In this document: piece by piece, positions 18,498 to 36,477 of the stretch
How positions within the stretch are numbered: position 1 is the first letter of the stretch
Layout: the number at the start of each line of letters is the position of its first letter
Assembly (NCBI GenBank): GCA_958426775.1
Contig: CATZZP010000001.1
Coordinates: 38,299-102,298 of the forward strand
DNA: 64,000 nt
Direction: 5' to 3'
Source: an uncultured Bacillota bacterium
GTDB lineage: Bacteria > Bacillota > Clostridia > Lachnospirales > CAG-274
Notes under the pieces: generated by a model
What the model was told of the DNA's origin: nothing
Database searches by the model: none
Seen by the model: only the letters and a program-made list of their open reading frames with translations
Translations under genes and position numbers: made by a program

Positions 18498-20795
18498 TTA
18501 CCTATTATCTTTATTGTTTTCATTTTTAATATGGTCCTTATAAAGCTTTTCAAAATCCTCATAAGGCATAGGCTTGGCAAAGTGATAACACTGCACAAGG
18601 TCACAGCCTGCCTCCTGAAGGAATTTAAGCTGGCTTTCATTTTCAACACCCTCTGCAACGGTACTGATATTAAGCTGATTAGCCATATCAATTATACTCT
18701 TTATAATCTGCCTTGCTTTAAGGTTGTTTTCCGTTTCAAGGAAGAACATTCTGTCAAGTTTAAGCACGTCAATATCAATATCCTTTAAGATGTTAAGAGA
18801 TGACTCACCTGAACCAAAGTCATCCATTGATACGGTAAAGCCTATCTGATGAATATGTTTTACTGCCTTTTCAAGCACATCACCTGAGCTTAAGGCGATG
18901 CTTTCCGTAATTTCAAGCTCAACATATTCAGCGGGTAAGTCATACTTATTTAAAATAACTTTCAGGTTGTCAATGTAGTTACTTTGGTAAAGGTGAAGTC
19001 TTGACTGGTTAACCGATATAGGTAAAGGTGTATAACCCTCGTCAAGTAACTTTTTTTGCATTCTGCAAACCTGATCGTATACATACATATCAACCTCGGT
19101 TATAAGACCTGTTTTTTCAAGCAGAGTGATAAATTTATTAGGTGTAAGAAAGCCCTTTGTTTTGTGCTGCCACCTTACAAGAGCCTCACCGCCTGCAAGC
19201 TTAAGAGTTTTTGCATCAAACTTAGGCTGGATATATACCAGGAAGTCCCCGTCCTTAAGTGCCTGCTGTGCATCGTTTTCAAGCTCTGCCTCAAAGTGCA
19301 TTTGTTGCTGAAGCCCCTCATTGTAAAAGGCATAGGCAGATATTCTCTTTTGCTGAATACCTGTAAGAGAAAGCTTAGCCTTATCAATATAGCTTTCCCA
19401 ATTGTCGGCACTTGGATTATCCTCCAGCTTGTAAATACCATAGTAGGTTACAATGTTATAGTTTGTATGGTTTTCATCAAAGTCGTAATTGCTTAACTGT
19501 TCAATTAAGCCGTTAACTCGGTTAATAATCTGTTGGTCATCTGTATACTTGACAAGCATTACAAAGTCATCACCGGATACTCTTGAGGCAATTTCGCCCT
19601 CGTTAAGGTTCTTGGCTATAATACTGCCTATATTTCTCAGTATGGCTGTACCTGTGTCATAGCCGAAAAGCTCATTTATGGTACGGAAATTGTCTATATC
19701 GCAAAAGATAATGGCGTAAGATGATTTATCTTCGGTAATCATCTGCCCTGCTTTAAGGGCAAAGCCGTTTTTACTGTAAAGCTCGGTTAAATCGTCAAAG
19801 TAAATTTGCTTGTAAAGCCTTTCTCTGTTTGAACGCTTTATGCTCTCTAAGTATTGCATAAAGGCAACTACACTTATTAAGGCAACTGCAAGCACCACAA
19901 GGCTTATAAATACTACTTGTACGGCGTTTTTCATAACATAAGTGCGTGGTACTGCAAGGAGCAGATACCAGTTTGCAGTGTTTATGGGGCTGTAAGTCAA
20001 ATAATAGCCTTTATTATCTTCGGTTTTAATCAATAGTGTACCCTTATCAGGCTTTTCATTAATAAGCTCGATTATTTTCTGAAGTGTTTCTTCGCTTATA
20101 TTAAGGTCCTTATAAGGGTTGTAGTTTTCTTCATCGGAATACTGACTGTCAATAACACGGTTCATATTGTTATCTACAATATAAGCAATACCGTTTCCTC
20201 CGAAATAGCTGTCCAGAATTGCTGTTTCAAGAGATGAGGAAAGGCAGACGCCCATATGAGTACCTACTATTACATTGTTGTTAAAAACAGGAAGTGCATA
20301 AATATTAACAGGTTGCCTTGTAACATAGTCTATTACAGTTGGTGATACGGTAATATTACCTTCTAAGGTATTTTTGAAATAGTCCTTATCGTGTATGTCT
20401 ATGTAGTTTACAACTCCGTCATTGCGTACGGTGTAGCCCTTACCCTCTCTGTTTGCATAGGAAACACGCATCATACTATGCCCGTTTAAGGCTAATTCAT
20501 CCTCTAAAAGGTCGATAATATGCTTAGCGTCAGAGCTTTGCACAGTGCTTAAATAGGGGGCATATGACTCCAGAGCGTAAATGTTGGTATCAAGTTTTTT
20601 ACTGATGTTACTTGCCCCTAATTCACATATTTCGCCTATGTAGGAGATTGCTTCGTTTATAAGAGTATTGTATGTGTATGAAACAAAGCCGATGCCTATA
20701 ATAAGCATGGCTGAAAGTATTCCTATAAGTGTAATAAGGGGTCTGAATTCAAATTTTTCCTGCTCAGAACTTTTTTTCAAATAGACCGCCCCCAA
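18498..20795 (-). CDS. Membrane sensor protein with extracytoplasmic Cache-like domain, degenerate GGDEF domain (SGDDF) and EAL phosphodiesterase domain
   Basis: 765 aa. TM helix near the N-terminus and a second after the periplasmic domain. GGDEF-domain region with ASRVSGDDFVML instead of RxGG(D/E)EF. EAL-domain motifs GGEALVRWQ, ELEITES, DDFGSGESSL, KLDRMF and EGVENESQ are intact. The start codon appears to be TTG at 20795 with a weak RBS, so the start is uncertain. Confidence 0.75.
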   Translation of the reverse strand: MGAVYLKKSSEQEKFEFRPLITLIGILSAMLIIGIGFVSYTYNTLINEAISYIGEICELGASNISKKLDTNIYALESYAPYLSTVQSSDAKHIIDLLEDELALNGHSMMRVSYANREGKGYTVRNDGVVNYIDIHDKDYFKNTLEGNITVSPTVIDYVTRQPVNIYALPVFNNNVIVGTHMGVCLSSSLETAILDSYFGGNGIAYIVDNNMNRVIDSQYSDEENYNPYKDLNISEETLQKIIELINEKPDKGTLLIKTEDNKGYYLTYSPINTANWYLLLAVPRTYVMKNAVQVVFISLVVLAVALISVVAFMQYLESIKRSNRERLYKQIYFDDLTELYSKNGFALKAGQMITEDKSSYAIIFCDIDNFRTINELFGYDTGTAILRNIGSIIAKNLNEGEIASRVSGDDFVMLVKYTDDQQIINRVNGLIEQLSNYDFDENHTNYNIVTYYGIYKLEDNPSADNWESYIDKAKLSLTGIQQKRISAYAFYNEGLQQQMHFEAELENDAQQALKDGDFLVYIQPKFDAKTLKLAGGEALVRWQHKTKGFLTPNKFITLLEKTGLITEVDMYVYDQVCRMQKKLLDEGYTPLPISVNQSRLHLYQSNYIDNLKVILNKYDLPAEYVELEITESIALSSGDVLEKAVKHIHQIGFTVSMDDFGSGESSLNILKDIDIDVLKLDRMFFLETENNLKARQIIKSIIDMANQLNISTVAEGVENESQLKFLQEAGCDLVQCYHFAKPMPYEDFEKLYKDHIKNENNKDNR

Positions 20796-21026
20796 TTTTG
20801 TTTGATTTGCTTTTAATACATTAATATAAATTAATTATACACTTATATACACTTAAATTCAATAAAAAATCTGTGATTGCACAAACAAAGATTATACAAA
20901 ATTTAAGGGAAAAAATTATGCAATGTATAACATAATTGCAATGGTGTGTATAATAATCAAATTATACACACCTTCCGTAAAAGCAAAAAAGCAACCGCTT
21001 ATGCGATTGCCTTTGATGCTATATAA

Positions 21027-21276
21027 ATATCCGGTAGGGGAGGATATTATATTCTCCGAGGGAAAAACCCTCGGCTGTCAAATAAATATGTTAATATCCA
21101 ATAGGGGGGAGGGATATTACATGCGTGGCGGAGCAACGGGCCCCGCCGTAAAAGTAAATACGTCAATATCCAATAGGGGGGAGGATATTATATGAATTGA
21201 AGCTCGGGGTAAGCTTCAATTTAGGATAAATAAATATGTAAATTAGAAATTATATCCAATAGGGGGGGAGGATATT
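21027..21276. repeat. Array of 4 copies of a palindromic G-rich repeat (AATATCC-AATAGGGGGGA-GGATATT) separated by unique GC-rich hairpin spacers
   Basis: Copies at 21027-21048 (degenerate), 21093-21118, 21165-21189 and 21252-21276. Each is preceded by AAATAAATATGT / AAAGTAAATACGT. The spacers contain perfect hairpins of different sequence (CCGAGGG..CCCTCGG; GGCGG..CCGCC; TTGAAGCT..AGCTTCAA). Confidence 0.6.
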
Positions 21277-21562
21277 TTATAAACCAAAAAAACTCAATTT
21301 AAACCGTTAGTCCAAACTGAGTTACGCAAAATTAAATATTTAGGTAACCCAGCTGTCTTAGCTAATGCCTTAGACCTGAGGCTTTGCGTCCTTGCCTTTC
21401 AACAAGTTTGCCTTTTTCACATATTTATTTATTCGTTTTTATAGGAGTTCAACTCCTATGTGAGTATAGTACCACAGTAAAAGATAAAATGCAAGAGTTT
21501 TTTTTGTAAAAAAATCGATTTTACAATTTGTTCATAATTTGCAACAAATAATGAAAAAATGA

Positions 21563-21856
21563 TTAAGAAATCTTTTTTAAAGGGTAGTAATTATTGTTTC
21601 TTTTTCTGCAGGCTTTAAGCACTATAACGTTATTTCTTGTTTCGGGTACTCTTACTGCCTTTGGGGTTATTTCCTCGGGGGTAAAGGCAAGGGCTAAAAC
21701 AGCACCTACAGCTATAGCTAAAAAAGGGAGTGTAGTTGCGTATATAACCGTCATACTTTCGGCAAAAAACCAATTTAATATATAGCTTGCCGTAAAAAGC
21801 AGGATTGAAACAGCAGTGACTGCAAGATATATTTTAATTAAGCGATTGTTATTCAT
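21563..21856 (-). CDS. Small membrane protein (97 aa, 2 predicted TM helices), hypothetical
   Basis: ORF with two hydrophobic helices (LAVTAVSILLFTASYIL; TLPFLAIAVGAVLALAF). No homology recognised. Confidence 0.35.
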   Translation of the reverse strand: MNNNRLIKIYLAVTAVSILLFTASYILNWFFAESMTVIYATTLPFLAIAVGAVLALAFTPEEITPKAVRVPETRNNVIVLKACRKRNNNYYPLKKIS

Positions 21857-35787: not shown

Positions 35788-36477
35788 ATGGCATCAAAAA
35801 TTTTGGTAGTAGATGATGAAAAGCTTATTGTTAAGGGTATAAAATTCAGCTTAGAGCAGGACGGTATGCAGGTAGATGTCGCCTATGACGGCGAGGAGGC
35901 GTTAAGGTTTGCAAAAGCAAACAACTACAGCCTTATTTTGCTTGATGTTATGCTGCCAAAGTATGACGGCCTGCAGGTTTGCCAGATGATAAGGGAATTT
36001 TCTAACGTACCTATTATTATGGTTACTGCAAAGGGCGAGGATATGGACAAGATTATGGGGCTTGAATACGGTGCAGATGACTATATTACAAAGCCATTTA
36101 ATATACTTGAGCTTAAAGCAAGAATAAAGGCTATCCTAAGACGCAGTGTAAGGACCGTTGTTACAGAGGAGGCTAAGAAAAACGTTATCAGCATAAGAGG
36201 TATGGAGCTTTACTTAGACTCAAGGCAGTGTAAGGTTGACGGTAAGGAAATTAACTTAACCGCCAAGGAGTTTGATATGCTTCAGCTCCTTATGGAAAAC
36301 CCCGGCAAGGTTTACAGCAGGGATAATCTGCTTAACACTATATGGGGCTACGGCTATCCGGGTGATGCAAGAGCTGTGGATGTACATGTAAGACGCTTAA
36401 GAGAAAAAATAGAGGCAAAGCCAAGCGAGCCACAGTATATACACACAAAGTGGGGGGTTGGTTACTATTTCCAGTAA
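35788..36477 (+). CDS. OmpR-family response regulator (WalR/YycF-like)
   Basis: 229 aa; receiver domain (ILVVDDE...LILLDVMLPKYDG...KPF) and winged-helix output (...VDVHVRRLREKIE...). Confidence 0.85.
   Translation: MASKILVVDDEKLIVKGIKFSLEQDGMQVDVAYDGEEALRFAKANNYSLILLDVMLPKYDGLQVCQMIREFSNVPIIMVTAKGEDMDKIMGLEYGADDYITKPFNILELKARIKAILRRSVRTVVTEEAKKNVISIRGMELYLDSRQCKVDGKEINLTAKEFDMLQLLMENPGKVYSRDNLLNTIWGYGYPGDARAVDVHVRRLREKIEAKPSEPQYIHTKWGVGYYFQ

Follow-up and report, generated by a model that had tools for sequence, protein, structure and literature searches.

The 64,000-nt stretch of contig CATZZP010000001.1 (assembly GCA_958426775.1, positions 38,299 to 102,298 of the forward strand; hereafter the window) from an uncultured member of the Clostridia carries, at 21027-21276, an array in which four hairpins of the form ATATCC-(G-rich loop)-GGATAT, termed H1-H4, alternate with three GC hairpins, termed S1-S3. 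On the minus strand the array is preceded by a promoter, a class I cyclic di-GMP (c-di-GMP-I) riboswitch aptamer and an intrinsic terminator (T1), and it is followed by a second terminator (T2) and a dCache-GGDEF-EAL gene. Judged from these sequence features, the array is very likely the body of a ~480-nt minus-strand non-coding RNA (ncRNA, ~21459 to ~20978) gated by the riboswitch. The overall reading, with a probability of roughly 55%, is that a modular small RNA (sRNA) under the control of a c-di-GMP OFF switch pairs, through its exposed UCCCCCCUAUU loops, with G-rich ribosome-binding sites (RBSs).

Architecture of the minus-strand unit

A search of the window with ATATCCNNTAGGGG, allowing at most one mismatch, matched just H1-H4, while shuffled sequences gave a mean of 0.19 matches and reached four in 0 of 100 cases. 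The first-pass annotation of this DNA had described four AATATCC-type repeats with G-runs of 4-7, and both points were confirmed, the runs in the copies being 4, 6, 6 and 7. It had further assigned a 7-bp stem and an 11-13-nt G-rich loop to every copy. The copies are present, but the stem of copy 4 (H4) is 6 bp, and copy 1 (H1, plus strand 21027-21047, ATATCC-GGTAGGGGA-GGATAT) has a loop unlike the others. The motif said to precede copies 2-4, AAATAAATATGT, is exact ahead of copies 2 and 4, with a distance to copy 4 greater by 13 nt, and is replaced by the degenerate form AAGTAAATACGT ahead of copy 3. The three GC hairpins (plus strand: S1, CCGAGGG/CCCTCGG; S2, GGCGGAGC/GCCCCGCC; S3, AATTGAAGCT/AGCTTCAATT) all exist as annotated, although not all are perfect, as S2 contains an A-C mismatch on the plus strand that corresponds to a G-U pair on the minus strand. 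The elements of the unit, in the order of transcription, are as follows.

21466..21494, minus strand: promoter with -35 element TTGCAT (21494..21489), 14-nt spacer and extended -10 element TGGTACTAT (21474..21466), recognized by sequence; arrangement common to 12 loci
21441..21459, minus strand: 5' hairpin AUAGGAG/CUCCUAU at the predicted transcript start; the stem compensates in other loci
21416..21432, minus strand: leader AUAAAUAAAUAUGUGAA, overlapping the beginning of the aptamer match; found as inverted repeats complementary to the ACAUAUUUAUUU linkers
21340..21422, minus strand: c-di-GMP-I (GEMM-I) riboswitch aptamer, Rfam RF01051
21284..21323, minus strand: intrinsic terminator T1, 15-bp stem and U7, riboswitch expression platform; from a terminator scan
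21252..21275, minus strand: H4, AUAUCC-UCCCCCCCUAUU-GGAUAU, the first copy in the RNA; loop unpaired with a probability of 0.99
21228..21239, minus strand: linker 1, ACAUAUUUAUUU, conserved in all arrays
21195..21221, minus strand: S3 hairpin, whose C-rich loop ACCCCG is of a second type; from inverted repeat and covariation
21166..21188, minus strand: H3, AUAUCC-UCCCCCCUAUU-GGAUAU; stem and loop near-invariant in six arrays, loop unpaired with a probability of 1.0
21152..21163, minus strand: linker 2, ACGUAUUUACUU; from repeat search, alignment and fold
21127..21147, minus strand: S2 GC hairpin GGCGGGGC-CCGUU-GCUCCGCC, including a G-U pair; from sequence and alignment
21094..21117, minus strand: H2, AUAUCC-CUCCCCCCUAUU-GGAUAU; from pattern and full-length fold
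21080..21091, minus strand: linker 3, ACAUAUUUAUUU; from repeat search and fold
21056..21074, minus strand: S1 GC hairpin CCGAGGG-UUUUU-CCCUCGG; from sequence and covariation
21027..21047, minus strand: H1 terminal hairpin AUAUCC-UCCCCUACC-GGAUAU; from pattern and alignment
20978..21014, minus strand: intrinsic terminator T2, 12-bp stem and U-rich tail, the RNA end; from a terminator scan, in every locus

Related loci and RNA structure

When 185,579 species, each represented by one genome, were scanned for the exact pattern, 50 loci (given L numbers) were returned, the majority of them unrelated palindromes. The true hairpin was found in 11 genomes, all of them metagenome-assembled genomes (MAGs) of Clostridia/Eubacteriales from animal or human guts, with a single locus each, so the question raised in the first-pass annotation, whether the repeat is dispersed or local, was answered in favour of a local element. 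Arrays with 3-4 copies occur in five genomes (L006, L008, L017, L045 and L023+L044, the last being one array divided by a contig end) and single-copy units in three (L003, L004, L047), while L019, L029 and L051 bear the identical hairpin in short promoter-to-terminator units without a riboswitch. In 8 of the 11 genomes, Rfam identified a c-di-GMP-I aptamer (70-91 bits) immediately before the hairpins on their C-rich strand, with identical element order, and on that strand all 12 hairpin loci possess, at a matching distance, a TTGnnn-14-TGnTAnnnT promoter. The block of promoter, riboswitch, T1, hairpins and T2 is conserved in other gut Clostridia irrespective of the neighbouring genes, and the hairpin itself is a module, by its sequence, that is reused alone or in arrays. 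The stand-alone candidate sRNA genes (L019, 7400-7640; L029, 3440-3680; L051, 4300-4570) consist of a promoter, a 50-100-nt 5' part, a ATATCCTCCCCCCTATTGGATAT hairpin, a small hairpin and a terminator.

Additional searches extended the set only slightly. A metagenome scan gave one additional locus, the loci of GGDEF-EAL orthologues contributed one further array (L064, a strain of L017), and a homology search with a 97-aa protein encoded next to the unit returned its own cluster only. Viral contigs and the records of phages and plasmids contained nothing similar, and a mobile or viral origin was rejected on this basis. Three strains of the window species agree in their loops and C-run lengths, on which ground phase variation by homopolymer length was rejected. 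One C6-to-C7 change between two strains of the L017 species indicates that slippage occurs, with no sign of its use; L064 and L017 are 99.6% identical over 950 nt, with at least two differences in H loops (C6-to-C7 and UAUU-to-UACU).

Several elements vary between arrays. The last array copy, at the H1 position, is always the ...CUACCGGAUAU variant, whereas the first H position in L008, L044 and L045 has a replaced stem with the CCCC loop retained. The S3 loop reads UCCCCG or UCCCC in other arrays, and the S2 loop CCGUU is identical in all five arrays having S2. The stem of the 5' hairpin changes in a compensatory way to GUAGAAA/UUUCUAC in L008 and L044 and to AUAGGAAA/UUUUCCUAU in L045. The L045 locus also features a ~190-nt GC-rich insertion between T1 and the array (columns 201-380 of the alignment described below) that contains hairpins and a T-run of its own and has no counterpart in the other five arrays, and one of the H copies of this locus has lost the C-run (ATTATCCCTTTTTGGATAT).

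Six species-level arrays were aligned (alignment A1), and RNAalifold recovered the aptamer, T1, every H and S hairpin and T2. On this consensus structure, which was derived from the same six sequences, 96.8% of the cells were paired, compared with 90.9% after shuffling and 34-46% when the partners were slid; 29 pairs were changed on both sides, compared with 13.6 +/- 2.4 after shuffling (0 of 500 shuffles reached 29) and 2-7 after sliding. These both-sided changes fall in S3 (8 of 11 pairs, helix 7), S1 (5 of 6, helix 11), T2 (6 of 14, helix 13), T1 (3 of 15, helix 5), S2 (2 of 8, helix 9) and the first H position (2 of 5). The first-pass annotation had read covariation from the spacers of a single array, which are not homologous to one another, but their positional counterparts across genomes do covary.

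The minus strand is favoured by 26 G-U cells against 2 A-C cells in the array helices and by the consensus folding energy, which is lower for the riboswitch strand (-45.7 kcal/mol) than for the opposite one (-31.3). For the window array, mononucleotide shuffles gave z = -7.5 on the minus and -4.5 on the plus strand. The earlier proposal of a structured minus-strand RNA with C-rich loops resembling an anti-Shine-Dalgarno (anti-SD) sequence is thus favoured by the promoter, the riboswitch, the two terminators and the G-U pairs.

On the RNA strand, only short open reading frames (ORFs; TTG, GTG or ATG starts) were found, which differ between loci in length and sequence and show no conservation; within the array they come after C-rich sequence that has no Shine-Dalgarno (SD) motif. 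A conserved small ORF with an RBS downstream of the riboswitch, of the CD1980.2 family type, was not found on this strand. On the opposite strand no ORF is conserved between loci, and antisense ORFs are absent in L008 and L017. Gene finders call a 90-aa plus-strand 'protein' over T2 and the array in the window (20923-21195), L052 (1309-1581) and L054 (3662-3934); it has no conserved counterpart at other loci, its tblastn matches track repeated DNA, and the annotation is very probably spurious. Metagenome contigs often stop within or just past the first array hairpin (L023/L044, L053, L056, L057, L058), and such repeats break assemblies and may so hide the RNA from MAG surveys. The array RNA would account for both the 'hypothetical protein' calls and the assembly breaks at this place.

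A further group of H1-like hairpins was seen in L016, L022, L027, L031, L035 and L036 (and L013), from Acutalibacter, Lawsonibacter, Subdoligranulum, Faecousia and unclassified Clostridia MAGs. These are mostly ATATCC-GCCCCTAC(G/A)-GGATAT on the C-rich strand, and most overlap an alternative GC hairpin such as GGGCGGAT.ATCCGCCC. Their flanks differ and no Rfam match was obtained for them; they may be distant relatives or a separate short motif.

Riboswitch and proposed function

The aptamer matches RF01051 over its full length (1-87; 21422..21340, minus strand) with 84.2 bits against a gathering score of 35 (E = 4e-15), making it a member of the c-di-GMP-I family and a putative c-di-GMP binder by model match. 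It lies 16 nt ahead of T1 and 64 nt ahead of the array on the minus strand. In Rfam 15, no family except c-di-GMP-I reached its gathering score over 20700-21700 at E <= 10, the best other match being SpF25 (24 bits vs 48, mainly over T2), and a permissive scan of the L019 stand-alone unit matched no family. The Rfam check suggested in the first-pass annotation thus revealed the riboswitch alone, upstream of an array that belongs to no known RNA family there; the hairpin module, alone or in arrays, is a candidate family outside Rfam 15.

T1, conserved with compensatory changes, and an alternative antiterminator constitute the expression platform. GUAACUCAGUUUG, in the 5' arm of T1, is complementary to CAGCUGGGUUAC, the 3' strand of the second helix of the aptamer. 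In simulated nascent transcripts of 149-161 nt the minimum free energy (MFE) structure holds the antiterminator and the aptamer is lost, while the aptamer and T1 become the minimum-energy fold as soon as the 3' arm of T1 is present in the complete leader; this succession of an early antiterminator and a late aptamer with T1 corresponds to the usual OFF-switch layout. The GUAAC element is invariant in the six arrays, and in L045 the rest of the T1 5' arm is altered and compensated in the 3' arm. The riboswitch is probably of the OFF type as modelled, with ligand leading to termination at T1 and its absence to read-through. Without ligand, CAGCUGGGUUAC would pair with GUAACUCAGUUUG and RNA polymerase would continue into the array; with c-di-GMP bound, the aptamer would keep CAGCUGGGUUAC, T1 would form and the product would be a riboswitch fragment of ~175 nt. 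The full RNA would accumulate at low c-di-GMP.

A second pairing may follow in the longer transcript. The linker ACAUAUUUAUUU, of which there are three in the array, one of them degenerate, is complementary to the leader (21432..21416) just 5' of the aptamer. A 16-bp helix between the leader and linker 1 was found by RNAalifold in 6 of 6 arrays, and the full-length single-sequence MFE agrees; its columns are nearly invariant, so that covariation neither supports nor refutes it. The helix, if real, would displace the closing helix of the aptamer in read-through transcripts, and as it is transcribed later, it would have no influence on the T1 decision. About 25 nt upstream of the -35 element of the riboswitch promoter, a motif GAACAAATTGT(T/A)AAA (21519-21533, minus strand) recurs at the same position in L017, L006 and L045, its core being the palindrome AACAAATTGTT in these three and AACAAATTGTA in the window. 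By its sequence, this is a candidate transcription-factor site through which the RNA could receive another input.

In the full-length fold, the four H loops are pyrimidine-rich with a run of 4-7 C and are unpaired with probabilities of 0.99-1.0; together with the S3 loop they give the RNA the two or more exposed C-runs that define C-rich-loop RNAs. The read-through RNA would display four AU-rich hairpins with exposed C-rich loops of 9-12 nt, UCCCCCCUAUU in the three internal copies, and the GC hairpins would act as structural spacers, one of which (S3) has its own CCCC loop. Exposed C-run loops, in which CCCC is kept despite stem loss, amount to the anatomy of an anti-SD sRNA, and repression at low c-di-GMP is proposed from it. 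The loops would base-pair with G-rich SD regions (complement AAUAGGGGGGA) and block translation initiation of target mRNAs, and RBSs with a G-run, AAUAGGGGG-like, would be the target type. Pairing in trans would widen the c-di-GMP regulon. As an effector mechanism, anti-SD pairing is proposed tentatively by analogy and is put a little short of even odds.

Among the RBSs of the window, the best match is that of a histidine kinase (start 36458, GUGGGGGGUUGG, -18.4 kcal/mol), followed by that of the adjacent GGDEF-EAL gene (around 20780-20830, UUGGGGGCGG, -14.2 kcal/mol). The kinase, of the HAMP-HisKA-HATPase type, has an unusual G6 ribosome-binding region, AAAGUGGGGGGUUGG (36430-36460, plus strand); apart from the array, no place in the window complements the hairpin loop better.

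Together with the small set of six arrays and the origin of the tested consensus structure in its own alignment, several observations weigh against the overall reading. The L017 orthologue of the GGDEF-EAL gene has not retained its G-run RBS, and the evidence for targets is weak, a 64 kb window being too small to be informative. Moreover, the H1-H3 stems show no variation except for a single unpaired cell, while the other helices covary, which is unusual for an sRNA acting purely through loop seeds and, as far as sequence tells, would fit recognition by a protein. This invariance is partly a matter of ascertainment, since the search pattern demanded one matching stem per locus.

In Firmicutes, c-di-GMP acts largely through riboswitches on the adjacent mRNA in cis. 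If the overall reading is true, a trans-acting multi-seed sRNA under a riboswitch would give c-di-GMP a post-transcriptional regulon and would join second-messenger riboswitches with anti-SD sRNAs in abundant, mostly uncultured gut Clostridia.

Precedents for the individual parts exist. EutX/Rli55 is a B12-riboswitch sRNA that reportedly sequesters EutV. As in EutX/Rli55, a 5' riboswitch and terminator stand on a stand-alone ncRNA unit, where termination decides the output of repeated hairpins, and the present unit with its own T2, a convergent next gene in three loci and no conserved ORF would be of this type. The two differ in ligand and loops, with adenosylcobalamin and ANTAR-binding hexaloop pairs in EutX/Rli55 compared with c-di-GMP and C-rich loops here, and the effector here is more likely RNA-RNA pairing. 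Such B12-riboswitch-gated sRNAs are known from Enterococcus and Listeria (DebRoy 2014 and Mellin 2014, as cited in PMC8237595).

The closest likeness in architecture is provided by the 'Cuckoo' RNAs of alpha-proteobacteria (CcsR1-4/RSs0680a-d, ar14, SmelC397/NfeR1), with 2-4 hairpins each carrying CCUCCUCCC (PMC4615179). Both are built of modular adjacent hairpins with the same C-rich anti-SD-like loop in each, vary in copy number between species and end in a terminator, often with a small gene adjacent. The Cuckoo RNAs belong to another phylum, possess CCUCCUCCC instead of UCCCCCCUAUU loops, combine a fixed loop with variable stems where most copies here have fixed stems as well, lack interleaved GC hairpins and are controlled by a stress sigma factor instead of a riboswitch; no Rfam model of theirs was matched. 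C-rich-loop sRNAs further include RsaE/RoxS, the UCCC-motif Rsa RNAs and RNAIII (PMC2790875, PMC8216469), 6C (PMC6486639) and sX13 (PMC3771888), of which RsaE/RoxS and Rsa are from Firmicutes. They likewise use several exposed loop C-runs to pair with the G-rich RBSs of multiple mRNAs, but their 2-4 C-rich regions are non-identical in contrast to the tandem near-identical units here, none is riboswitch-gated, and no similarity to the array was seen in sequence or by covariance model. A c-di-GMP riboswitch gating a multi-hairpin C-rich-loop RNA was not described in the full-text literature searched. The statement in the first-pass annotation that nothing known fits is therefore too strong, as the unit combines two known kinds, riboswitch-gated sRNAs and multi-hairpin anti-SD sRNAs, in an undescribed combination and is not a new category.

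Alternative readings and neighbouring genes

The fixed stems lead to the alternative that survives best, although it is unlikely, namely that the riboswitch-gated RNA titrates an RNA-binding protein recognising AAUAUCC-UCCCCCCUAUU-GGAUAUU. CsrB and RsmZ sequester CsrA in this manner, and CsrB/RsmY/RsmZ carry many repeats of one short hairpin motif per RNA. The array has three to four near-identical hairpins per RNA, a multivalency typical of sponges; stem and loop of H1-H3 stay invariant across species while neighbouring helices covary (helices 8 and 12 vs 7, 11 and 13); and the identical hairpin is reused in the unrelated stand-alone units L019, L029 and L051. However, no candidate protein is linked to the locus, whose sole recurrent neighbour is the 97-aa membrane protein with no known domain, and in the diverged first hairpins the C-run persists without the stem. 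Neither the GGA nor the ANTAR hexaloop signature of known sponges is present in the loops, GGA occurring on the transcribed strand just in the 3' stem arm, and the manner of locus discovery contributes to the stem invariance. A wider version, in which the hairpin is a module for a widely conserved Clostridial RNA-binding protein or the 30S subunit and the array a c-di-GMP-controlled multivalent CsrB-like sponge of Firmicutes, is equally doubtful. The single-hairpin stand-alone sRNAs would then be constitutive or differently regulated siblings, and the three ACAUAUUUAUUU linkers might lock the read-through RNA in a ligand-blind state.

Far less probable is that riboswitch, array and T2 form a long cis-acting 5' leader, an expression platform that would feed back on c-di-GMP turnover through the GGDEF-EAL gene, whose co-orientation with the array the first-pass annotation had noted. 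The dCache-GGDEF-EAL gene lies downstream in the same orientation in the window and in L017/L064, its RBS G-run could pair with the loops, and a long two-terminator c-di-GMP-I platform is described for Bc1 (PMC11218506). This linkage proved to be lineage-specific by sequence comparison, and the leader was rejected on that ground. T2 is a strong, conserved terminator that intervenes, and ~190 nt with promoter-like and operator-like sequence separate it from the gene. The gene after T2 is different in L006 and on the opposite strand (convergent) in L008, L045 and L004. Six other GGDEF-EAL orthologue loci (51-59% identity) have no riboswitch or hairpin upstream, and in MAG GCA_947591605.1 the orthologue (L059) is on contig 4 and the array (L045) on contig 1. 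As the gene after T2 differs or is convergent, the array would be a transcription unit of its own and not the leader of the GGDEF-EAL gene.

More remote still is a type I antitoxin RNA or a carrier of a small-protein gene. In C. difficile, class I c-di-GMP riboswitches precede the type I antitoxin RNAs RCd11/RCd12 (Peltier 2020, as given in PMC11477304) as well as 58-aa membrane proteins (according to bioRxiv 10.64898/2026.06.10.731418), and in V. cholerae Vc2 stabilises sRNAs upstream (10.1101/617340). RCd11/RCd12 and Vc2 are precedents for a c-di-GMP-I riboswitch controlling an ncRNA and not an mRNA, and a small gene with two transmembrane (TM) segments lies just upstream of the unit in four of the six array species. 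RCd11/RCd12, however, are prophage cis-antisense antitoxins with a second, stronger promoter, whereas neither a toxin ORF nor a prophage is present here, and the Vc2 sRNAs lie upstream of the riboswitch under stability control, in contrast to an RNA downstream of the riboswitch terminator. The RNA strand has no conserved ORF with an RBS, and no small hydrophobic ORF is conserved antisense to the RNA, which led to the rejection of a toxin-antitoxin pair; phage and plasmid matches are missing too. L008 leaves no room for an antisense ORF, as a housekeeping gene ends within ~55 nt of T2; from its N-terminal sequence, the gene after T2 there appears to be an M16-type peptidase, followed by PNPase.

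The small gene itself is encoded in the window at 21563-21856 (minus strand), directly upstream of the riboswitch promoter, with an ordinary GGAGG RBS. Its 97-aa product has two TM segments predicted by sequence reading and no Pfam match; homologues with 36-39% identity, which have the C-terminal KIS in common, are encoded at the corresponding place in L017, L006 and L045, but the gene is missing from L008 and L044. It is reminiscent of C. difficile, where small membrane proteins are linked to c-di-GMP riboswitches, but the gene here lies upstream of the switch and not downstream.

A DNA-level element (REP-like, minisatellite, CRISPR-like or tandem operators) or plus-strand RBSs with micro-ORFs can be dismissed almost entirely: palindromic units are arranged in tandem, assemblies are frequently interrupted in them and GGAGG-N8-ATG occurs on the plus strand at copies 2 and 3, but there is one locus per genome at a constant position relative to the riboswitch, with no copy outside the array in the window, the G-U pairs are strand-specific, C-run lengths agree in the three strains of the window species, a loop of 9-14 nt is ill-suited to a dimeric operator, and the ATGs and reading frames are not conserved. 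The micro-ORFs of the first-pass annotation fail in particular because copy 1, like many of the orthologous copies, has no ATG after its G-rich motif, and because insertions and deletions in the loops change the reading frame. The 'spacers' are not unique as in CRISPR arrays but are orthologous hairpins that are conserved, order included, across species; no search for Cas genes was made.

Between T2 and the GGDEF-EAL gene, the window contains a perfect 12-bp inverted repeat, GGTGTGTATAAT-N6-ATTATACACACC (20943-20972), which is not visible downstream of T2 in L017/L064. A tandem TATACACTTA x2 is located at 20836-20855, and the interval 20826-20972 also includes repeated AATTATACAC and promoter-like hexamers on both strands. 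Elsewhere in the window, at 49277-49505 (plus strand), a T-box leader was recognized with 125.5 bits, with phenylalanyl-tRNA synthetase beta-chain domains ~3 kb downstream, near 52507.

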